Positions 12,688 to 31,600 of a stretch of DNA of 55,791 bases are shown one piece after another; within the stretch, counting starts at the first letter, position 1; each line of letters opens with the position of its first letter. A program made the position numbers and the translations under genes. The stretch is from IMG/VR virus record IMGVR_UViG_3300031841_002239, positions 1 to 55,791 of that record; one strand, given 5' to 3'. This DNA comes from a virus (Duplodnaviria > Caudoviricetes). The notes beneath the pieces were generated by a model. It was not told where the DNA came from. It did no database searches and worked only from the letters and a program-made list of their open reading frames with translations.

Positions 12688-15363
12688 TTAGAATTCAAAA
12701 AACGTTGATAACGTTTCACTTTGTGTAGTCCTGCTTAAATCAAAGCCCATAGGACCAATAACATTAGCAACTTTTTTATCTAATACTGTTTCTTCCATTG
12801 CCTCTTCATCAAATGGTAAATCCTTAAACCATTGTGGCAAATTAAGTTCATCTGTAGGATATGCTACACTAGTATATCCCATTGGATTATTTTTAAGTTT
12901 ACATACAATTACTTTAGCACCGTCTGTTACTGATAAACTATACGCATCACTGTTTGCTTTTTTAAGATTGTTCCAATTAATACTAGCTCTAACATGCCCA
13001 GGTATCATATTGCTTTTGCCTTCATTTTTAAGAGCATGTAATTTATGTAACGTATTTGTATTAGGTGCTCTGGCTTGCTCCATCATTTTAGATGTATACA
13101 TAGTAACATTATTAGCACGTTTAGGCATACCCTTGCCCCATGGCTCTAACTCTTTAAAATACTTTTTAAACTCTTTAATTTTTTCTATTACATGTTCTTC
13201 GCCTAAACCATTTAAACAATCTACTAATAATTCTTCTAAAAAGTCTTGTATAAACTCAGGAGTGTCAGAACGTTTAATTTCTAAACCCATTGCCTTTAGT
13301 TTGCCACCTTCAGGCTGATAACCTTCAATATCTAAACACAATATACCATATCTCTTTTTAGTTAAAAACAATCCTGCTCTGCCAACAACTTCTCTACCAG
13401 CAATCATTACAGCACCACGTTCCAAAGGAACATTAAATGTGTCTTTTAAAAACTTAGGAAATGTACCACTCACTGTGTCTGATACATGATCATATAACTT
13501 AATAGCACTATCCATATCTAATGCTTGTTCACCCATAATAGGTGCCGCACTAAAATACACAGAATCAGTATCACCATAAATTATTGTTTCGCCTTCATAA
13601 TCATATTCGCCTGTAAATATTCTGTTTGTCTCAGCCGCCATATGCTTCGTAATAGCTCTGCCTGTTAGTGTTGTGCTTTGTCCTATACGTTTGTCATAAA
13701 ACCTACAATGAGGATTAAGTATTGCACCATACAAACTGTTTAACTGAATCTTTTTAACTAACTGCCTTTTATCCCAATATACCTGCTCTGCGCCTTCTGA
13801 TTCTTTTTTCTTCTTCTGCATACGTTGTCTATCAGTATACCAAAGTTCCAATAAGCCAGGCACAATACCTTGTACGTCAGTTGTAAATATTGTGCCGTTA
13901 GCACTAATATTCCAGGGTTGGCCACTATTAAAAACTAAGTTATAAACGTCAGCACCTGTTACTTCATGTACTCCACCATCTTCCATTTCTAACTTCATCA
14001 TATGGTCAACGTCTTTGCTTTTAACAAACTCAAACTCGTTTGTACCAAACTTGCCATGCCAAGCATCAGCAAAACTTTTCTTCTCTAATTTTTGTGCATT
14101 TGTAATTTCTTCTAATGTATAACTAGGATCTAATTGTCCCACAATAGTCTCAGGCGCCATATTAAGAGCCCTAAACACACTAGGATATAGACTGTTTAAA
14201 TCCATACTGCCTACCCAGTCATGATATCCTTTCTTAGGCGTAGCCACAAAGGCACCTGCCGCACTATCACGTTCAGATGATTTAGGCTTATCAGGAACTA
14301 CCATGCCACGTCTATGTGCTTCATTTATAATTGCTTGTTCAGTTGTTGCTACAGCACCCATAGTTGTTGGAATTAATACTGTATTTTCATGTGCAATAAT
14401 GTTTGCTAGATCAACAAACTGTAGTTTCTTATCCAGTTTATCCAACAGCATAACGTCTTGTATGTTATATTCACAAAACTTTAAGAAGTCATGATTGTAA
14501 AGTCTATCTAAACTACCTTCATATGGAACTTTCTTTTCACCAACTTCCATTTCACCAATATAGTCTAATCTATAACTATGGCGTTCTTCATAGTTATATT
14601 TTCTATAAAGCTCTAAGTAATCTAAATGTATTCTACCTACTAAATCATATGTAACAACTTCACTGCCAAACTTTTCATACTCTCTTCTCTTAGGCAGTTT
14701 TTTCATCAAACACATACGTCTTGTTTCTGCTTTACCTAATGTTTTAGTAATCCTATTAACTGTATAAGGTATATCATATCCTTCACTGTTCCAGCCACTA
14801 AGTACGTCAGCATCTTCTATAATATCTAAAAATGTATCTAACATCTCCTTTTCTGTTTTAAACAGCATTACTTCAGGTAGAGGCTTAACAACTTCTTGTG
14901 CCTGTTCCCAACTTAAAGTTTTAGGAGGTACTGCTAAACATATCATTGCATCCATCCACTGTAAGTAAACACCTATTGCTGTTATGGGAGTAAATGGGTC
15001 AGAAGGACTACTGTATCCACGTTGTGGATCGAAGTCTACCTCAATATCAAAAAATGCTACATTTAGATCTGGTGCATCAGCACCGTTGTAGTCTTGTGCT
15101 AATACTTTATTAATAGGCCTTATATCGCTCTCGAATGTTTTATTACTGCTATGTATACCTAAATTTTTCTTAAAGTCTTTTATATTAGCACATCTTAGTT
15201 CAGTTACAGGGTCACCGTAAATGCTTTTATGTTTACCATGTGGGTCAGCATAATAAAAATTATGTGTGGGACTTATTTCTTTTATAATACGTTTGCCATC
15301 AATACGCTCAACGACAGTAACAATGTCCTTGCCTTGATCGTAAAATGCGTCAACGTAACTCAT
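12688..15363 (-). CDS. Family B DNA polymerase (T4 gp43-like)
   Basis: Exo motifs FDIE, GWNSEGYD, YNIQD; Pol motifs DLNSLYPS, KIQLNSLYG, YGDTDS, KKRY; C-terminal clamp-binding-like LSTFFEF. Confidence 0.96.
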   Translation of the reverse strand: MSYVDAFYDQGKDIVTVVERIDGKRIIKEISPTHNFYYADPHGKHKSIYGDPVTELRCANIKDFKKNLGIHSSNKTFESDIRPINKVLAQDYNGADAPDLNVAFFDIEVDFDPQRGYSSPSDPFTPITAIGVYLQWMDAMICLAVPPKTLSWEQAQEVVKPLPEVMLFKTEKEMLDTFLDIIEDADVLSGWNSEGYDIPYTVNRITKTLGKAETRRMCLMKKLPKRREYEKFGSEVVTYDLVGRIHLDYLELYRKYNYEERHSYRLDYIGEMEVGEKKVPYEGSLDRLYNHDFLKFCEYNIQDVMLLDKLDKKLQFVDLANIIAHENTVLIPTTMGAVATTEQAIINEAHRRGMVVPDKPKSSERDSAAGAFVATPKKGYHDWVGSMDLNSLYPSVFRALNMAPETIVGQLDPSYTLEEITNAQKLEKKSFADAWHGKFGTNEFEFVKSKDVDHMMKLEMEDGGVHEVTGADVYNLVFNSGQPWNISANGTIFTTDVQGIVPGLLELWYTDRQRMQKKKKESEGAEQVYWDKRQLVKKIQLNSLYGAILNPHCRFYDKRIGQSTTLTGRAITKHMAAETNRIFTGEYDYEGETIIYGDTDSVYFSAAPIMGEQALDMDSAIKLYDHVSDTVSGTFPKFLKDTFNVPLERGAVMIAGREVVGRAGLFLTKKRYGILCLDIEGYQPEGGKLKAMGLEIKRSDTPEFIQDFLEELLVDCLNGLGEEHVIEKIKEFKKYFKELEPWGKGMPKRANNVTMYTSKMMEQARAPNTNTLHKLHALKNEGKSNMIPGHVRASINWNNLKKANSDAYSLSVTDGAKVIVCKLKNNPMGYTSVAYPTDELNLPQWFKDLPFDEEAMEETVLDKKVANVIGPMGFDLSRTTQSETLSTFFEF

Positions 15364-17435: not shown

Positions 17436-17463
17436 ATTATAGCAAAATTTAAGAACTTGTCAA
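17436..17463 (-). promoter_or_regulatory. Sigma70-type promoter
   Basis: TTGACA-N16-TATAAT with extended TG. Confidence 0.75.
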
Positions 17464-18053
17464 GTATTATCTACAATTAAATTATAAATTTCTTCCCAAT
17501 TCTTAACAACATTAGCATCACCAGTAAAGTCTAAATTATGCCCATGTTCTATAAGAATACCATTAAGCCCTTCTTTTATTCCAGCATTTAAATTTTCTGG
17601 CTTGTCCTCTATCCAATAATTTCCTGGATACTTAGGCCCATACTCAGCAAGTATTTCATCTTTATCAGCACCTGTATCTAAACATACAACTTCTATAAAT
17701 GCATCTCCAAATAACTTTTTAAGATTTCTTTCTCTTAATTCTTTTGCATAAGGATCTAAACTTAAACTAGTAATTGCTATAAACTTGTACTGGTGTTGTT
17801 CGTGTAATTTCTTAACAAAGTATTGTGCATCACGAAGTGGAGGAAGGAATCCTATTGCCGCACTTTCATTAAATACTTTAACCATTTGTGAGCCTTGCTC
17901 TTTAGAAATACCGTATCTATCACCAATATTGTACATATACTGAGCGCCTTCAACTTTACTATGTCCATGATGTTCCATCCAAACTGAAAACCCTTCTTCC
18001 CAATCCAGTACAACACCATCGCAATCTGTTAAAATAATTTTATCTTTCTTCAT
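17460..18053 (-). CDS. HAD-family 5'(3')-nucleotidase-like phosphatase
   Basis: ILTDCDGVV motif I, ITS motif II, WIEDK motif IV. Confidence 0.8.
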   Translation of the reverse strand: MKKDKIILTDCDGVVLDWEEGFSVWMEHHGHSKVEGAQYMYNIGDRYGISKEQGSQMVKVFNESAAIGFLPPLRDAQYFVKKLHEQHQYKFIAITSLSLDPYAKELRERNLKKLFGDAFIEVVCLDTGADKDEILAEYGPKYPGNYWIEDKPENLNAGIKEGLNGILIEHGHNLDFTGDANVVKNWEEIYNLIVDNT

Positions 18054-18076
18054 ATTATTTCCTATGTTACAGCACT

Positions 18077-18104
18077 ATTATACTAAGAAACTGTATTTTG
18101 TCAA
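18077..18104 (-). promoter_or_regulatory. Sigma70-type promoter
   Basis: TTGACA-N16-TATAAT. Confidence 0.72.
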
Positions 18105-18126
18105 GTGTTTTTTGTTAAATAGTATT

Positions 18127-18699
18127 ATGGCATACAAAAAGAAAATACTATTTCCAGACTATTTATTTGAGGGACAACTAGAGGTACCTAGTGATTTAAA
18201 TAAAAACATTCAGGAAAGTTTAAAAAAGAATAAAGAATCTGGTATTACTACAGAAACTGTTTATGGCTGGTTTACAAACAAGCAGTTTCCTTGTGAAGGT
18301 ATTATACCACAACTTGCAAACTTATTAGCAAAAAACTTTGTAGGCAATGTAGTTAATAATTTTGACTTGGGAGTTGCAAGAGATATTAATTTGCTTAACC
18401 CTTGGCTCATATCTACTAACCCTAACCATTCTTTCCCTACAACTTTAGAGCCACAAAGATGGTACAATGCAGGTGTATATTTACAAACAACTAATAAAGG
18501 TAGTCATTTAAAATTAGATAACTATACATCTAAAGTTTATGCAGGACAAAATACACAGGAAAATAGTGTTTATATAAAACCTAAACAGTATAAAGTAATA
18601 TACTGGCCTAGTCATATACCCTGGAGTTTAACTCCTAATATGAGTATGGTAGAAACAACAATGCTTATTTGTACTTTTAGAGCTGATGCTAAAAAATAG
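18127..18699 (+). CDS. Degenerate 2OG-Fe(II) oxygenase-like protein (TIGR02466-type fold)
   Basis: GVYL...IKPK...IYWPSHIPWSLTPNMS pattern; start reassigned to MAYKKK, 5 nt after TAAATA (18116-18121). Confidence 0.55.
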   Translation: MAYKKKILFPDYLFEGQLEVPSDLNKNIQESLKKNKESGITTETVYGWFTNKQFPCEGIIPQLANLLAKNFVGNVVNNFDLGVARDINLLNPWLISTNPNHSFPTTLEPQRWYNAGVYLQTTNKGSHLKLDNYTSKVYAGQNTQENSVYIKPKQYKVIYWPSHIPWSLTPNMSMVETTMLICTFRADAKK

Positions 18700-18700
18700 T

Positions 18701-18718
18701 GTGGCCCCGAAGGGCCAC
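18701..18718. terminator. Intrinsic terminator hairpin between convergent genes
   Basis: GTGGCCC-CGAA-GGGCCAC; UUCG loop and a following U-tract on the minus strand. Confidence 0.8.
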
Positions 18719-18725
18719 GTATGCC

Positions 18726-18890
18726 TTAAGGATAGAAAGGATTATCTGTTATATAATCAGGTAACTCAGATTTTCTTTTAGAGTTAGTGACCATACGAGG
18801 AAAGAATTTTTCCTGCAAATCAGATTTTCTTTTTTCTCTTCTAAGGGCTAATTTGACTGCACGTTTAATTTGTGCGTTTTGATTAGTCAT
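18726..18890 (-). CDS. 54-aa basic peptide downstream of the tandem glutamine riboswitch
   Basis: Not in track. MTNQNAQIKRAVKLALRREKRKSDLQEKFFPRMVTNSKRKSELPDYITDNPFYP; AAGGAG RBS 5 nt upstream; terminator immediately downstream. Confidence 0.8.
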   Translation of the reverse strand: MTNQNAQIKRAVKLALRREKRKSDLQEKFFPRMVTNSKRKSELPDYITDNPFYP

Positions 18891-18912
18891 GTCATCTCCT
18901 TTTACAAAGATG

Positions 18913-18973
18913 CGTTCCTTCGGTCTAATTACCTACTTCCGTCGTCGCTCTACATTTAGAGTGGCGATGAACG
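18913..18973 (-). ncRNA. Glutamine riboswitch aptamer (glnA motif), downstream copy
   Basis: CGUUCAUC-[stem-loop]-GACGGAAGUAGGU-aauu-AGACCGAAGGAACG: P1 CGUUC/GAACG with GGAAGUA and GAA E-loop elements. Confidence 0.85.
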
Positions 18974-18982
18974 AGTTCAGTA

Positions 18983-19040
18983 CGTTCCTTCGTCCCAATT
19001 GACTACTTCCGTTCACTGCTACATTTAGAGTGAATGAACG
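18983..19040 (-). ncRNA. Glutamine riboswitch aptamer (glnA motif), upstream copy
   Basis: CGUUCAUUCACU-[loop]-AGUGAACGGAAGUAGUC-aauugg-GACGAAGGAACG; same conserved core with compensatory changes in P2 and P3. Confidence 0.85.
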
Positions 19041-19063
19041 AGTGTAACTTGCGTTACATTAAA

Positions 19064-19069
19064 TATTTA
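19064..19069 (-). promoter_or_regulatory. Late-type promoter (GATAAATA) for the riboswitch unit
   Basis: TAAATA core, followed 5 nt later by a UGUAAC-GCAA-GUUACA hairpin (19043-19058). Confidence 0.65.
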
Positions 19070-19082
19070 TCTTTACTCAAAA

Positions 19083-19108
19083 AAAGGGCGGTTAAAAAAC
19101 CGCCCTTT
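19083..19108 (-). terminator. Intrinsic terminator of the structural gene run
   Basis: AAAGGGCGGTT-AAAA-AACCGCCCTTT with a T7 tract on the minus strand. Confidence 0.85.
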
Positions 19109-19135: not shown

Positions 19136-22100
19136 TTATACCCAGTTGTAGTGAACTGAGGCCACTGCCGCACCACTTGTTGGTGCAACTGCGTTATCAC
19201 TTGCATCAAAGAATGCTAACGTTACCGCCGCATTTTTTGTTAAAGTAATGTCGCCATCTAGTTCTATAATATAGTTACCTACTGTAGCCGCATCTGCGTC
19301 TGCTTTAGCAACAAGTGTACTACCTGAACCACCGTTCTCTTTAATAGTAATGTAATTAACACTATTACCTGCAAAGGCTGTACTTACTTTTAATACTATT
19401 TTCTCAGCATAATAAGTTCTGCTGGAAACGTTAGGTACCGTACCAATAGAAGCCGTTGTGGCTCCACTTGTTACAGCCGCTCTTAATAAAAGTCCGTCAC
19501 CGCCGTTGTTAGCAACATAGTCAACAACTGCCGCTGAAGTTGGAAGAGTAGTATCGTTATCGTTATTACTAATTCCATCTGCTTCATCAACAAATTTTGT
19601 TACAGTAATGCTTTCGCCACTGTCTGTTAATGAACCAAAACTTACAGCACCACTAATAGTAGCACTTGTACCGATGAGTCCAGCCGCTTCAAAATCAGTT
19701 GCCGCTAGTGTTAAATCACCAGCAGTTGATCCGTCTGCAGTTGTAGTCGCCGCTACAAATCTATCTGTACTTTGATCCCATCCTAAGAAACCGTTGTTTC
19801 CATCGGAGCCTCTTTCATAAATGTGACCAATGTCATTAGGGTTAGCACCAGTTAATCCACTTTGTAGTGTAATTAAGGTGTCAGTTATTGTTGTGTTAGT
19901 TGAATTAACACTAGTTTGTGTACCACTTACAGTTAAGTTACCACCAACTGTTACATCACCTGATGTAGCAATAGTTGTAACACCTGAAATAGCACCACTG
20001 TTAATACTTGCTACGCCATCAGTTAATGTACCTGCTGATACTTGTCCTGAGAAAGTACCTGCTGTCATATTAGTTAGTGTTGCATCAAGGTTTACAGTTA
20101 ATGTATTATCAGCACCTGCTGTAGTAATATTAGTACCACCTGCGATGTCTAAAGTTTCGCTGTCTAAGTCTATGCTTAATGCTCCACCTGAGTCACCTTG
20201 GAAGTCTAAATCAGCCGCTGTTGCAACTGAATCTACGTATGCTTTAACTGATTGTTGTGTAGGAACAAGAGTAGCACTATCACTAGCCATGTTATCTTCA
20301 TCAACAAATCCAGCAATAGTAATACTACCATCACTTAATGATCCATACTGTACAGTACCACTTGCTGTAACATTTACAGCACCTGTTACGTTACCTGCTG
20401 TTACAGTTAATGCACCATCTGTTAAAGTTGTTGCACTAACACTTGTTAATCCAGATACTGAACTTGCTAGTCCAACAGTAATAGTATTGTTACTAACTGT
20501 TGTTGTAGTTTCGTTTGATGTACCTGCAAAGTTAATTGTGTCAGTTCCTACTCTTACAACGTCATCTGAACCACTGTCAGCACCGATTGTTAAATCTGAG
20601 CTAATAGCCGCTGTTCCGGCCGCTGTTAAACGTCCTTGATCGTCAACTGTAAAAGTTGGAATTGCTGTTGCACTACCATATGAACCTGCTGTAACGGCAG
20701 TATCGTCAAGAGTTACAGTTAAAGTATCAGTAGCCGTAGCCGCTGTTGTTATACCTGTTCCACCTGCGATGTCAACTGTGTCTCCACCGTCAACTGTTTG
20801 CGTACCACTGTCACCTGTTAATGTCCAAGATGTTGAAATACTTGCAGTTGAAGCCGCTGTAATTCTACCTTGTGCATCTACAGTAATAACTGGAATAGCA
20901 GTTGAACTACCATAGTTACCAGCCGATACTGCTGTATTGTCTAGGCTCACAGTTAAAGTTTGTCCTGAACCGACTGTTGAAAGTCCTGTTCCACCAGCAA
21001 TGTCTAGCACTTGTGAATCAAGGTCTACACTCAATGCACCACCTGAATCTCCTTGGAAATCTAGGTCTTGTGCGGTAATTTGTGTATCAACGTATGCTTT
21101 AACTGATTGCTGTGTAGGTACTTTAGTTGCAGAGTCTGAAGCCATATTGTCTTCATCTACAAATGTAATACCTGAGATTGTACCATCACTAAATGATGTA
21201 CCTTCTACAGCACCAAATTTTACAGCACCTGCTGAACCTGACATAACTGAACCTGAGTCAGTTGCATCTGGAATAAATGTAAATACACCAGTACTATCGT
21301 CGAATCCAAAGAATCCTAATTTAGCACCACTGCTGTTATATTTAAAGTTTATACCTCTATCTAAGTTATCATCACTTGCATCATCACCAACTGTAAAAAT
21401 TGGATCTGAAACTTCTACTGTTGTAGAGTTTGTTATAGTTCTTGTTCCAGTAACTGTTAAGTTACCATTAATTGTAACAGTATCTGCTGTTATGTCGTCT
21501 GATAAGAAACTACCTGTAACACTTAGGTTATTACCTACTGTTACATCGTTAGGTAAACCTATTTGAATTTGGTTATTACTAACTGTTGTTTCTATTTCGT
21601 TACTTGTTCCAACAAAGTTCAAAGTGTCAGTTCCAACTGTAACAGTATCATCAGAACCACTATCGGCTCCAATTGTTAATACACTTGAGGTAGCCGCAGT
21701 ACTTACTGCTGTGACTCTACCTTTTGCGTCAACTGTTATTACTGGAATTGCAGAACTTGATCCGTATGAACCGGCACTAACTCCACTGTCTGCTAAGGTT
21801 GTTGCGATAGTGGCAGTATTACCTGCACCTGTAAATGTCGCACTTCCTGTTGCATCACCTGACAAAGCAACTGTTACTGCTGAAGTAAATTCTGTTGCTT
21901 GACTGGCTGTACCAGTTAAGTTACCAACAAACCCTGTACTAGCAGTAATTGTGGTACCTGTAATAGCCGCCGCCGAGTTGGCTCCGATTATTGTACCATC
22001 AATAGCACCGCCATCAATGTTTACTGAGTTTGCCGCCTGAACGGATAAGTTTCCAAGTCCCAAGTTGGTTCTTGCATCACTGGCTCCAGTTGCACCTGTA

Positions 22101-22423
22101 CCACCATTTGCTACTGGTAAAGCACCAGTTACATCTGCAGTAAGATCAATTGATCCAGCGGACATAGTACCGCTTGAAACTTTTATAACACCAGAACTAC
22201 TACTGAAATTTTGTCCTGTACCACCGTACTGTGTTCCGATTGCCGTGCCATTCCAAGCACCCGCCGTAACTGTTCCTAATCTAATATCTTCTAGAGTAGT
22301 ACCGTTACTTTGCGTTAGGTCAAATCTTCCGTTACCAGCATCGTATATTAAACGACCCCCGGATTTTCCCATTTGCACATCGGCCGCAATACCTTTGATA
22401 CCAAAGTTTTTTATGTCAGCCAT
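19136..22423 (-). CDS. Large repetitive virion fibre/structural protein, 1095 aa
   Basis: Gly/Ser/Thr/Ala-rich; three V-x-AG-x-YGS-x-x-AIP-x-x-TVD-x-x-GR repeats and two FVDEDNMASDSAT-x-VPTQQSVKAYVD / DLDFQGDSGGALS repeats. Confidence 0.8.
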   Translation of the reverse strand: MADIKNFGIKGIAADVQMGKSGGRLIYDAGNGRFDLTQSNGTTLEDIRLGTVTAGAWNGTAIGTQYGGTGQNFSSSSGVIKVSSGTMSAGSIDLTADVTGALPVANGGTGATGASDARTNLGLGNLSVQAANSVNIDGGAIDGTIIGANSAAAITGTTITASTGFVGNLTGTASQATEFTSAVTVALSGDATGSATFTGAGNTATIATTLADSGVSAGSYGSSSAIPVITVDAKGRVTAVSTAATSSVLTIGADSGSDDTVTVGTDTLNFVGTSNEIETTVSNNQIQIGLPNDVTVGNNLSVTGSFLSDDITADTVTINGNLTVTGTRTITNSTTVEVSDPIFTVGDDASDDNLDRGINFKYNSSGAKLGFFGFDDSTGVFTFIPDATDSGSVMSGSAGAVKFGAVEGTSFSDGTISGITFVDEDNMASDSATKVPTQQSVKAYVDTQITAQDLDFQGDSGGALSVDLDSQVLDIAGGTGLSTVGSGQTLTVSLDNTAVSAGNYGSSTAIPVITVDAQGRITAASTASISTSWTLTGDSGTQTVDGGDTVDIAGGTGITTAATATDTLTVTLDDTAVTAGSYGSATAIPTFTVDDQGRLTAAGTAAISSDLTIGADSGSDDVVRVGTDTINFAGTSNETTTTVSNNTITVGLASSVSGLTSVSATTLTDGALTVTAGNVTGAVNVTASGTVQYGSLSDGSITIAGFVDEDNMASDSATLVPTQQSVKAYVDSVATAADLDFQGDSGGALSIDLDSETLDIAGGTNITTAGADNTLTVNLDATLTNMTAGTFSGQVSAGTLTDGVASINSGAISGVTTIATSGDVTVGGNLTVSGTQTSVNSTNTTITDTLITLQSGLTGANPNDIGHIYERGSDGNNGFLGWDQSTDRFVAATTTADGSTAGDLTLAATDFEAAGLIGTSATISGAVSFGSLTDSGESITVTKFVDEADGISNNDNDTTLPTSAAVVDYVANNGGDGLLLRAAVTSGATTASIGTVPNVSSRTYYAEKIVLKVSTAFAGNSVNYITIKENGGSGSTLVAKADADAATVGNYIIELDGDITLTKNAAVTLAFFDASDNAVAPTSGAAVASVHYNWV

Positions 22424-29410: not shown

Positions 29411-31600
29411 TTATGTTAAAAAGGTATATTCCTCATTTACATAATCAACTGATATATTAATATCTGACAAGTCTTCAAATAAAACTTTCTTACTTAGTGG
29501 TTTTTTAACTTTATCTTCAAAAACTCTTTTTAAAGGTCTTGCACCCATACTTGGTTCATATCCATCATCAGCAAGTTGTTGCCTAGCATTAGCAGTTAGG
29601 CTAATAGTAACTGTGCTTTCATTTTCAGCAAGTAACTCATTTGTTTCTTTAACAAGCCTATCAACTATTAACAACATTAACTCTTTAGCAAGTTTATTAA
29701 ATGTAATAACTGCATCTAATCTGTTTCTAAATTCAGGAGAGAAGAATTTCTCAACTGCTTTATCGACTGCTTTAGTTTTTGTTTGATCTCCAAAACCAAT
29801 TTTTAGTCCCTCAGCATCTGTGGCTCCTAAATTACTGGTCATAAGTAATATAACATTACTAAAATCTACTTTTTTACCTGTACTGCCTGTTAAATGTCCA
29901 TCATCCATTACCTGTAATAATACTTGTAATACTTCTGGTGCCGCTTTTTCTACTTCATCAAGTAGTAAGACACAGTTAGGATTTTCTTCAACTTCTGCTA
30001 AAAGCAATCCTTGTCCTAATTTTCCTTCGGCGTGTCCTACATATCCTGGAGGTGCACCAATTAGTTTGGAAACTGAATGTCTTTCCATATACTCTGACAT
30101 ATCAAACTTAACCAGTTTACATTCTAATTCAGTTGCAAGTGTTTTAGCAGTTTCAGTTTTACCTGTACCTGTAGGACCAACTAACAAGAAACTACCAATT
30201 GGTTTGTTTTTCTCTCTGAGTCCTGACTTACTAACTACAATGTTCTCTACAATTTTATCTACTGCTTCATTTTGTCCAAACACAACCTTTTTAATTCTGG
30301 TATCTAAGTTTTTATATGTGTCCACACTCTCTACGTCTATAACATCAACACCTACATGGGATATCTTACTAATAACATGGATAACATCTTTTAGTGTAAC
30401 ATCTTGTTCGCCACGTAATTTTACTCTGGCACCTGCGGCGTCTATAACGTCTAACGCCTTATCTGGAAATGCTTTGTTTTTAATATATCTGTGACATAAG
30501 TCAACTGACTTTTCTAAAATGTCTTGACTGTATTTTACTTTGTGAAAGTCCTCATAATAGTTATTGAGACCTTTTACAATTTCTTTTGTATCTTCAATAT
30601 TAGTTTCCATTATATCTAGTTTCGCAAACCTACGCATTAATGCTCTGTCCTTCTCAAAACTGTCAGCAAATTCATCTGGTGTTGTAGCACCTATAGTAAG
30701 CAGTCTGCCTTTGCCTAACACAGGCTTAATCATGTTTGCAATGTCAACACTACTGCTACCAGCACTACCGGCACCCATAATCATATGTATTTCATCTATA
30801 AACAATATGGCATTAGGACTAGCCTCTAATGTTTCAAGTACTGTCTTGAACCTCTCCTCAAAGTCTCCTCTGTATCTGGTACCAGCAAGTAAATCGCCTA
30901 CTGCTAAACTGTAGATAATTTTATTTTGTATAACGTCAGGAACATCACCATCAACAATACGTTTAGCAAGACCCTCTGCTACCGCTGTTTTACCTGTACC
31001 AGGTTCACCAACTAACACTACGTTATTCTTTTTACGTCTAGCAAGTATATGTACAAGCTCATCTACTTCCTCATGTCTGCCTATAAGGTTGTCTATTCTG
31101 TTCTTTTGTGCTTCTTCATTTAAGTTAGTTGTGTATTCTTTTACAAGCTCTGTACTTTTATCGCTATTGTATTTGTGTTCTAAAAAGTCAACAATAATAT
31201 TTTTATCTAGGCCATTTAATTGGCAAAAGTAAGCCGCATGTGAATTTTGTTCGCTTAAGATACTTAAAAACATATCTAAAGGCTTCACTTCTTCTCTACC
31301 ACTAAAAATAACCTGTGCTAAAGCACGTTGTATAATTCGTTCTGTGGAGGCAGTTTTTTTAGGTTCCCCTTTAACTCCATGCTCATTGGTTAATCCATTA
31401 AGTACAGGATCGTCTAAATACTGATTTATGTCTTCAACAATATTATTTAAATCCACACTAAGCTCTTTTACTAGCTCTGCAATGTCTTCATTTTCCAAAA
31501 GACAAAACATAATATGTTCTAAGGTGACATATTCATGACCTTTGTCCTTGGCAAAATTTACTGCGTTTTGAATGATACTATCTATATATTTGCTTTCCAT
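29411..31600 (-). CDS. clpA: ATP-dependent Clp protease ATPase subunit ClpA
   Basis: Clp N-domain, two AAA+ modules ([16 protein letters not shown]), GAPPGYVG pore loop, IGF ClpP-docking loop, no ClpB middle domain. Confidence 0.93.

Follow-up and report, generated by a model that had tools for sequence, protein, structure and literature searches.

We found that a 55,791-nt stretch of virus DNA (55.8 kb, hereafter the window, a fragment covering ~15% of the phage genome) carries on its minus strand a compact unit in which two tandem type 1 glutamine riboswitch aptamers, a helix covering the Shine-Dalgarno (SD) sequence and the gene of a 54-aa peptide follow one another between two intrinsic terminators. 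The same riboswitch and peptide unit is present in SAR86 genomes, including that of one cultured strain. The sequences compared show directly the aptamers, the architecture of the unit, covariation in the SD helix, a family of related peptides and its occurrence in SAR86. From these we predict that glutamine switches on the translation of a small effector of nitrogen assimilation, for which the type II glutamine synthetase (GSII) of the host is the candidate target.

When the window was scanned against Rfam with cmscan, only two matches were obtained, both to RF01739 (type 1 glutamine riboswitch, glnA RNA; gathering score 35 bits) and both over the full model (1-53 of 53): aptamer 1 at 18979-19042 (minus strand, 50.0 bits, E 4.9e-08) and the SD-proximal aptamer 2 at 18909-18975 (minus strand, 52.2 bits, E 1.2e-08). 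A repeat scan agreed, and the identity as a type 1 glutamine riboswitch is, on these alignments, almost certain. A sequence-only reading of the same DNA had placed the two aptamers at 18983-19040 and 18913-18973, which fall within the RF01739 matches, and had expected two covariance-model hits. The core CGUUC...ACGGAAGUAG...CGAAGGAACG is present in both aptamers, and P1 and P3 pair in both cmscan alignments. That reading had also described P2 and P3 stems that differ between the copies and keep their pairing; this held for P3, where compensatory changes give GUC/GAC in one copy (aptamer 1) and GGU/ACC in the other (aptamer 2), and only in part for P2, which differs between the copies and pairs in aptamer 1, with one pair of aptamer 2 non-standard according to cmscan. 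P2 of aptamer 1 is extended, with the loop CUCUAAAUGUAG, and the 3' tail of aptamer 2, GCAUC, starts the anti-SD strand. The leader is ~180 nt long; its minimum-free-energy fold, taken as a whole, was no more stable than those of shuffled sequences (z = -1.31) and was set aside as evidence.

Downstream of aptamer 2, an AAGGAG Shine-Dalgarno sequence is followed by the ATG at 18890, and in the minimum-free-energy fold CAUCUUU (18912-18906) pairs with GGAGAUG (18899-18893) to form an SD-sequestering hairpin (18893-18912, minus strand). All 12 distinct platform variants formed this hairpin, at -5.8 to -9.7 kcal/mol. In the alignment of the SD helix 92.9% of cells were paired, versus 32-67% when the helix was slid, and 3/7 pairs had changed on both sides, with compensatory changes in two lineages (CAUU/AAUG in L024, CAAUC/GAUUG in L028/L029). 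Masking of the ribosome-binding site by these two strands, which had been proposed from the letters alone, thus belongs to the predicted fold and is kept with compensatory changes. In PMC6212724, an RBS-masking mechanism is postulated for the gifB leader, glutamine raised reporter output, and the ligand-dependent 'linchpin' pair of the solved aptamer involves the position that corresponds to the first C of the anti-SD strand of the phage hairpin. The mechanism suggested for the phage SD helix matches that postulated for gifB. We infer both the response to glutamine and its ON polarity: a T4-late-type promoter motif would drive an mRNA with two type 1 glutamine aptamers in its leader; without glutamine, the tail CAUCUUU of aptamer 2 would pair with GGAGAUG and hide the ribosome-binding site; and with glutamine bound, the first C of the tail would be taken into the long-range pair of the aptamer, the masking helix would open and the 54-aa peptide would be translated. 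Two aptamers would be expected to give a steeper response than one. We regard translational control of this ON type as probable.

The leader is preceded by the promoter-like motif GATAAATA (19064-19071, minus strand, found by motif search), which resembles the T4 late promoter TATAAATA. A [GT]ATAAATA motif lies 12-30 nt 5' of aptamer 1 in 30/30 evaluable viral loci versus 0/6 SAR86 loci. The total number of KATAAATA copies in the window was not above chance (12 found versus 14.3 expected); eight of the 12 lie within the 11.8% of non-coding DNA, and six of these eight are 5-93 nt ahead of a gene on the same strand, fibre genes included. T4-type late units are marked by a TATAAATA-like -10 box, with no -35 box, ahead of structural genes, and the cassette fits this pattern. 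The motif and this placement suggest late expression of the cassette; a PHROGs scan of 24 proteins from the window, which is ~15% of the genome, showed no gp55-type late sigma factor. Between the motif and aptamer 1, the predicted fold contains the hairpin UGUAAC-GCAA-GUUACA (19043-19058, minus strand), probably the 5' end structure of the transcript; a hairpin is present here in 20/30 viral loci, with a compensatory C-G to U-A change (GTAACGCAAGTTAC versus GTAATGCAAATTAC).

Further upstream, an intrinsic terminator (19083-19108, minus strand; 11-bp stem, 6 GC pairs, T-run) ends a 1095-aa fibre-like structural gene (19136-22423) and insulates the cassette from it, and a terminator stands at the matching upstream position in most related loci. 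The unit itself ends in the intrinsic terminator GUGGCCC-UUCG-GGGCCAC with a U-run (18691-18718, stem-loop 18718-18701, minus strand; -15.4 kcal/mol, z = -2.95). The terminator search returned three sites versus 0.5 expected in shuffles, and a GC-rich stem-loop followed by a U-run was found on both sides of the unit. Because there are terminators on both sides and the next gene (18064-18699) lies on the plus strand, convergent with the cassette, we consider the cassette monocistronic. The insulating terminator, the late-promoter motif, the GCAA-tetraloop hairpin, the AAGGAG site, the 54-aa ORF and the UUCG terminator had all been listed in the sequence-only reading, and each was recovered at its place.

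The promoter, aptamer and ORF layout, which that reading had suggested looking for in related phage contigs, does recur: the peptide gene was found in 31 viral contigs, of which 26 have a pair of aptamers, four have a single one and one is interrupted by the contig end. Their genomic contexts vary, the upstream fibre gene being common to only 9/31 viral loci and the downstream NT5C gene to 8/31. Such varied contexts, the self-contained form of the cassette between terminators and its patchy occurrence in SAR86 (7/121 sampled genomes of the order) would fit a passenger (moron) taken from a SAR86-like host without adaptive role, or a functional RNA leader whose ORF is incidental or cis-acting. 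We hold both to be improbable, since the bacterial upstream region has been replaced by [GT]ATAAATA in the viral copies, the helix and the C-terminal motif of the peptide are kept in 27 representatives even where identity falls to about 35-45%, and the unit lacks any further gene that a leader peptide could regulate. A role in cis, as an arrest or leader peptide, was dropped because the unit is monocistronic and some members of the family end in NPWY without the final proline.

Contigs from RNA libraries (4 runs, 3 studies) match 18724-19062 at 90-99% identity and then diverge into other flanks; they indicate that relatives of the cassette are present and prove neither transcription nor transcript ends, and nothing can be read from the flanks left uncovered, since the relatives occupy other contexts. 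Among GenBank phage records, none was found to encode the peptide or the aptamer pair by nucleotide and translated searches: with the 1-kb region or the pair of aptamers as query, blastn gave no match in 50,697 records, and tblastn with two family peptides gave chance matches only (E >= 0.4).

The peptide gene (P0001, 18726-18890, minus strand) encodes an MTKYQ start, an N-terminal basic helix, a variable linker and a conserved C-terminal LPxYITDNPFYP. The family comprises 27 true representatives at 50% identity, with peptides of 46-54 aa, and the AF2 model of the peptide has a helix at residues 4-29 (mean pLDDT 73.9). Searches of Pfam, PHROGs and NCBIfam with the peptide returned no family, and NCBIfam matches to RecX and REP-transposase (E 0.06-0.1) were rejected as far under the cut-offs. 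The best score in the ESM Atlas feature search was 0.78, to unnamed clusters and under the level of a usable lead, and a search of PDB chains with the peptide found none similar (best E 6.3). The strings of the C-terminal motif were not found in the literature, where the supplementary lists of genes behind environmental glnA RNAs in PMC6212724 and PMC2864571 may include the ORF. Two hits of the profile search, P0039 (1246 aa) and P0051 (480 aa), were discarded because they are translated tandem repeats in which 'ITDNPF' arises by chance.

A YRGV stretch in some members raised the question of homology to DUF4278/IF17 (PF14105). Membership was rejected, since 0/24 aligned members matched PF14105 even at E <= 10 (cut-off 25.3 bits). 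True but diverged homology to the DUF4278/IF17-like peptides, with the same mode of action, would accord with the weak match of a relative, P0008 (YRGVAY; E 0.032, 15 bits, under that cut-off), with the Y-x-Y-R-G-V-R-Y in the linker of several members and with a riboswitch class in common with gifB. However, most members, the window peptide among them, have no YRG stretch, which where present belongs to the variable linker, and the parts that are conserved, the MTKYQ helix and LPxYITDNPFYP, have no Pfam match; we consider such homology very improbable.

As to the phage itself, its polymerase is 42-47% identical to those of jumbo myoviruses, and a cyanophage identity was rejected on this ground. 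Judged by its genes, the phage is an uncultured marine relative of the jumbo phages with T4-like replication genes. A tRNA scan of the 55.8-kb window found none. The GC contents of phage and SAR86 are similar (35.8% versus 35-38%), and phage aptamer 1 is nearly identical in alignment to aptamer 1 of the SAR86 chromosomes; as clues to a SAR86 host, these likenesses are only circumstantial.

Sequence comparison places the cellular counterpart of the cassette in SAR86 Gammaproteobacteria, not in cyanobacteria. Tandem aptamers are present in 7/8 bacterial loci, the eighth being interrupted by a contig end, and in a complete SAR86 chromosome the pair ahead of the peptide gene accounts for the only RF01739 matches. 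Since the unit stands with a bacterial promoter region in SAR86 chromosomes, we take horizontal transfer to be the reason why both the phage and SAR86-type hosts have it. Its presence in so few of the genomes sampled makes the peptide accessory and not a core regulator of glutamine synthetase (GS). The GS that adjoins an NtrB-like kinase in SAR86 is of type II (E 1e-88 to 4e-82 versus solved GSII structures), and SAR86 also encodes two PII proteins, GlnD and a second GS-family protein (464-aa, GS-like). GlnE gave 0 matches in the complete SAR86 chromosome in a search that did find it in three control genomes.

The target of the peptide was approached through a complex model of two SAR86 GSII chains and the native SAR86 peptide, with GSII as the one target modelled. 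The ipSAE of GSII with the peptide was 0.67, 0.62 and 0.64 (median 0.64), versus 0.01 for the best of three controls; the score is the model's own confidence, obtained with own alignments in a job of 2+1 chains unlike the calibration, where the ipSAE mark was reached by 58/80 solved complexes and 2/110 mismatched pairs. The pLDDT of the peptide in the complex was 52-57, and at least 57% of contacts were common to the runs. On the peptide side, the contacts of high confidence fell on residues 33, 35-36 and 38-46, in other words on the conserved motif, and they were made with W96, E100, E169, H218, N220, S222, R227 and Y298 of GSII and D48 of the neighbouring subunit. The model lends support, not proof, to a placement of the conserved C-terminus in the GSII active site.

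On the most likely reading, the peptide would be a trans-acting small regulator of nitrogen assimilation whose LPxY(I/V)TDNPFYP plugs the inter-subunit active site of the host GSII and inhibits the enzyme; its likeness to cyanobacterial IF7/IF17 would then be one of function and not of descent. We name GS as the target tentatively, on the basis of this model, at somewhat less than an even chance. The same switch might instead govern a peptide that acts on a PII protein, AmtB, GOGAT, NtrB or the 464-aa GS-like enzyme, in the manner of PirA and PipX, small cyanobacterial proteins that bind PII. The two PII genes, GlnD, the NtrB-like kinase and the second GS-family protein of SAR86 offer such targets, small PII-binding proteins are known in cyanobacteria (PMC8092223), and GSII was the sole target that the modelling covered. 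We nevertheless think another target unlikely: the GSII model scores far above its controls through exactly the conserved motif, and the cyanobacterial glutamine riboswitches are linked to a GS inhibitor rather than to proteins that bind PII. The full chain, with a phage cassette, a glutamine ON switch, a peptide that inhibits host GSII, and transfer with SAR86-type hosts, would in our estimate fall just short of an even chance.

Previous work described glutamine riboswitches as confined to cyanobacteria, with gifB as the associated gene (PMC6212724), and the statements of the sequence-only reading on gifB and on tandem occurrence agree with PMC6212724 and PMC2864571. The closest known system is the gifB (IF17) leader of Synechocystis sp. 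PCC 6803 (Klahn et al. 2018, PMC6212724), which has the same RF01739 element with a small basic protein gene downstream, an anti-SD strand beginning at the conserved C after P1, a postulated ON effect of glutamine on translation and a feedback link between glutamine and glutamine synthetase. Unlike gifB, the unit described here has two tandem aptamers and lies outside cyanobacteria, in a jumbo phage and SAR86; no NtcA promoter was seen, and the viral copies have the T4-late-type motif. Its product is not a DUF4278 protein by the Pfam profile (0/24), and the candidate target would be a type II GS, with the peptide modelled in the active site. The type 2 glutamine riboswitch (Downstream-peptide motif, RF01704) of marine picocyanobacteria also has a short conserved peptide (IF17-like) behind a glutamine-sensing leader; however, RF01704 is another Rfam family with no match in the window, and the peptide family differs.

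RF01739 has also been reported in cyanophages, pelagimyophages and the OM43 phage Melnitz (PMC9964418, PMC9004378), which are likewise marine myoviruses and include phages of heterotrophs. There the element was tied to ssrA or thyX, or to no target, whereas in the present unit the controlled gene is defined together with its platform and promoter. The C-terminal tails of GlnR and TnrA bind the feedback-inhibited type I GS of Firmicutes (PMC9249791) and belong to DNA-binding regulators; in contrast, the peptide of this study is a free one of 46-54 aa, its partner would be a type II GS known from the model only, and there is no sequence similarity. Tandem riboswitches, as cited for glnA RNAs in Weinberg et al. 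(2010, PMC2864571), double like aptamers, an arrangement linked to more digital control; unlike such systems, 4/30 evaluable viral loci carry a single aptamer.

In SAR86 and uncultured jumbo phages, a known sensor class governs an unrelated family of peptides that had not been described before. SAR86 ranks with the most abundant lineages of heterotrophs in surface waters of the ocean. It is possible, if on balance doubtful, that SAR86 and the giant phages that share its genes evolved a riboswitch-gated GS inhibitor independently of cyanobacteria, in which the peptide would plug the entrance of ATP and ammonium in GSII and the phage, having rewired the unit to a late promoter, would stop ATP-consuming nitrogen assimilation at high host glutamine during virion production. 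If true, type II GS would have its first peptide inhibitor, and phages of marine heterotrophs their first riboswitch-controlled metabolic effector with an assigned target. If the link to GSII is true, it would also mean convergent evolution of circuits made of a riboswitch plus a small GS inhibitor, would explain post-translational tuning of GS in a streamlined gammaproteobacterium without GlnE and would offer a testable case of a phage that reads a host metabolite to dose a metabolic effector. Tests are feasible because the leader (~180 nt) and the peptide (46-54 aa) are short and the genome of a cultured SAR86 strain has the unit.

All the parts listed in the sequence-only reading, namely a terminator, promoter motif, hairpin, repeats, ribosome-binding site (RBS), ORF and UUCG terminator, were found on the minus strand, and the tandem glutamine riboswitch that it had proposed was recovered, as expected, as two matches to RF01739, the Rfam glutamine riboswitch (gathering score 35 bits). 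Aptamer 1 (19042-18979, minus strand) scored 50.0 bits (E 4.9e-08) and aptamer 2 (18975-18909, minus strand) 52.2 bits (E 1.2e-08), both over model positions 1-53, and Rfam matched nothing else in the 55.8-kb window; the assignment of both as glutamine riboswitches is secure. On the same strand, a terminator search placed the upstream terminator at 19108-19083, a motif search the promoter-like motif GATAAATA at 19071-19064, and the predicted fold a 5' hairpin (UGUAAC-GCAA-GUUACA) at 19058-19043, while the 54-codon ORF of peptide P0001 runs from its ATG at 18890, preceded by AAGGAG, to 18726 and has 3' of it the terminator GUGGCCC-UUCG-GGGCCAC with a U-run (-15.4 kcal/mol, z = -2.95). In the ORF map the neighbouring gene (18064-18699, plus strand; weak match to 2OG-Fe(II) oxygenases, phrog_81, E 1.8e-05) is convergent, therefore the cassette is monocistronic; the next gene encodes an NT5C-like 5'-nucleotidase (17460-18053, minus strand; phrog_420, E 5e-42). 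The P2 stems have a kept extension, tipped by CUCUAAAUGUAG (CUA/UAG stem, AAUG loop; 19015-19030 and 18945-18960, minus strand), which lies outside the Rfam consensus, is found in both phage aptamers and in aptamer 1 of the SAR86 loci (L034-L041), and might make a tertiary or inter-aptamer contact.

Peptide relatives were encoded at 31 viral loci in the IMG/VR scan, of which 26 carry a pair of RF01739 aptamers immediately before the peptide gene and four (L021, L027, L030, L031) a single one; the contig of the last, L025, ends 45 nt before the ATG, so that the 3' part of an aptamer remains and Rfam matched none. In 30/30 evaluable viral loci [GT]ATAAATA preceded the first aptamer by 12-30 nt, and the promoter-aptamer-ORF layout that the sequence-only reading had proposed to look for in related contigs thus recurs. 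The 5' hairpin was present in 20/30 viral loci, and a compensatory change in it turned a C-G pair into U-A. The fibre gene upstream of the cassette in the window was common to only 9/31 loci and the NT5C neighbour to 8/31, therefore the cassette occupies several genomic contexts. L003, an 88-kb IMG/VR contig, encodes a peptide 100% identical to that of the window with another platform variant (AGGAGG Shine-Dalgarno sequence, SD), other neighbours and three tRNA genes upstream, which suggests that the cassette moves between phage genomes. In RNA-seq libraries of three studies, short contigs of 173-338 nt covered 18724-19062 at 90-99% identity and continued into divergent flanks, among them the terminator and GATAAATA as in viral loci L003, L004 and L012, which shows that relatives were present in those libraries and is no proof of transcription.

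The window (GC 35.8%), an IMG/VR viral record about 15% complete by CheckV, encodes a family-B DNA polymerase (12688-15363) that shares only 42-47% identity with its counterparts in jumbo myoviruses, among them Sinorhizobium phage Phosso, Agrobacterium phage Atu_ph07 and the 121Q/Rak2-like phages (genomes of 337-490 kb). It also encodes a clamp loader, a head maturation protease, fibre-like proteins and a Lon-like ATP-dependent protease of 729 aa (29411-31600, minus strand; phrog_4871, E 6e-240), and from polymerase relatives and gene content it is therefore a jumbo-phage relative that has T4-like replication genes, and not a T4-like cyanophage. The cassette motif resembles the T4 late promoter, TATAAATA. 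KATAAATA was not over-represented in the whole window (12 found, 14.3 expected); what matters is its placement, with 8/12 copies in non-coding DNA, which makes up 11.8% of the window. Six of these eight, the cassette's own aside, preceded a gene on the same strand by 5-93 nt, and one additional copy, inside an ORF, lay 32 nt upstream of such a gene; the genes behind the copies include fibre-like or structural genes of 1095, 1091 and 1086 aa. A gp55-type late sigma factor was not found among the 24 proteins of this genome fragment scanned against PHROGs. From the motif we infer that the cassette would be transcribed late.

The 3' tail of aptamer 2, CAUCUUU (18912-18906), is predicted to pair with the SD-containing GGAGAUG (18899-18893), the RBS masking proposed from the sequence, and this SD hairpin formed in the predicted folds of 12/12 distinct platform sequences across the loci (-5.8 to -9.7 kcal/mol). 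Aligned over 16 distinct rows, the hairpin had 92.9% of its cells paired, against 32-67% when the partner was slid, two-sided changes occurred in 3/7 pairs, and the covariation score was matched by 0/500 shuffles. The two-sided changes stem from two lineages only, L024 (CAUU/AAUG) and L028/L029, the latter with an extra A in one arm matched by an extra U in the other, and the covariation support drawn from these sequences is real but modest. Klahn et al. showed for the gifB leader that glutamine raises its expression, and postulated that bound ligand engages the conserved C following P1 in a long-range G-C pair, so that the RBS-blocking helix melts (PMC6212724). In the phage this C opens the SD hairpin, from which we infer an ON switch; translational ON control through the hairpin is likely. 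The 3' arm GGAGAUG holds an AUG (18888-18896, minus strand) that opens a 2-codon mini-ORF, AUG-NNN-UGA, overlapping the real start codon and kept in most platform variants (GAUGACAUGA, GAUGUUAUGA, GAUGAUAUGA). In SAR86 (L034-L041) and some viral loci (L012) the tail of aptamer 1 is GCAUCUU, the same anti-SD as after aptamer 2, and either tail could mask the SD, giving AND logic; this anti-SD was not found in the inter-aptamer linker of the window (GUACUGAACU).

P0001 had seven other clusters at E <= 0.01 in a set of 5.8 billion proteins, its own 90% cluster being on 145 contigs. Invariance of YITDNPF among the IMG/VR loci is partly by construction, because the scan used the patterns YITDNPF and MTNQ...; a pattern-free profile search (1.84 billion representatives), which corrects for this bias, gave 29 matches at E <= 0.001, and the sequences of 26 were retrieved. 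The long matches P0039 and P0051 were rejected as repeat artefacts, which left 27 true members. The wider motif of the family is LPxY[IV]x[DNK]NP[FWY]Y(P), and its start, MTKYQ plus a basic helix, is conserved. In the AF2 prediction for P0001 (mean pLDDT 73.9) residues 4-29 form a helix, and the C-terminal motif contains a short turn. The peptide matched no Pfam, PHROG or NCBIfam family; membership of DUF4278, the domain of the cyanobacterial glutamine synthetase (GS) inactivating factor IF17, was rejected, with 0/24 members matching and one relative sub-threshold.

Prokaryotes, scanned with one genome for each species, gave eight loci. Five belong to records titled SAR86 cluster bacterium, including the HIMB1674 strain's complete chromosome, and two to MAGs of uncultured Gammaproteobacteria; the last is on an 823-bp contig from an Acidimicrobiales bin, and the score of its tRNA match, 70.8 bits, was the same as at four other loci. 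Tandem RF01739 aptamers precede the peptide in 7/8, the eighth being cut by the contig end, and [GT]ATAAATA was present in 0/6 evaluable bacterial copies. Aptamer 1 of the window is near-identical to that of SAR86, extended P2 loop included, in contrast to the peptides, which are only about 48% identical. On these records, the cellular home of the cassette is SAR86. The peptide, present in 7/121 sampled genomes of SAR86's order, is accessory there, with which the RF01739 entry inside deletions in SAR86 populations, listed in a 2025 paper (PMC12379486), agrees. The occurrence also qualifies a 2018 statement that glutamine riboswitches are exclusive to cyanobacteria (PMC6212724).

In the HIMB1674 chromosome (1.6 Mb) the sole RF01739 matches are the two aptamers before the peptide, which is therefore its whole glutamine-riboswitch regulon. 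This genome encodes two PII genes and GlnD, GlnE had no match in a search positive in control genomes, and a type II GS of 323 aa (GSII) adjoins an NtrB-like kinase; a 464-aa GS-like protein, beside a deacetylase-like gene, was below all NCBIfam cut-offs. On this inventory we modelled two copies of SAR86 GSII with the native 46-aa SAR86 peptide. Scores were 0.67, 0.62 and 0.64 (median 0.64; best of three controls 0.01), a mark reached by 58/80 solved complexes and 2/110 mismatched pairs, counts that hold only roughly for our own alignments and 2+1 chain design. The runs had at least 57% of contacts in common, and the pLDDT of the partner was 52-57. In the model the confident contacts of the peptide, Y33, L35, P36 and Y38-P46, are its conserved motif, and they meet W96, E100, E155, E169, Q171, H218, N220, S222, R227, P287-T290, G297 and Y298 of one subunit and T25-S33, D48, I50 and L51 of its neighbour, residues that the conserved GS motifs (FGFEQEY, NAEV..GQWEYQ, GSGMHTNFS and the neighbouring N-domain Asp) assign to the metal, ATP and ammonium sites. 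The peptide resembled no PDB chain (best E 6.3), so that a score owed to a similar complex already seen by the model is less likely. A functional precedent is offered by the C-terminal tails of GlnR and TnrA, which in Firmicutes bind feedback-inhibited GS (PMC9249791). SAR86 GSII (L043:1198-2166, minus strand) starts MTKYEY and the peptide family MTKY(E/Q) in an alignment with GSII starts (A6), so candidate inhibitor and candidate target share identical first five residues; this may be chance, the GSII consensus start being variable. Our best single hypothesis, held tentatively and at somewhat less than an even chance, is that the peptide would be a GS-directed inhibitor.

The sensor class, its tandem arrangement and its occurrence in marine phages are already described in earlier papers (PMC2864571, PMC9964418, PMC9004378). 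The peptide family, SAR86 home, promoter swap and GSII docking model were not found in the text of the papers searched. Taken together, the whole chain from riboswitch through ON control to a GS-directed peptide falls just short of an even chance.
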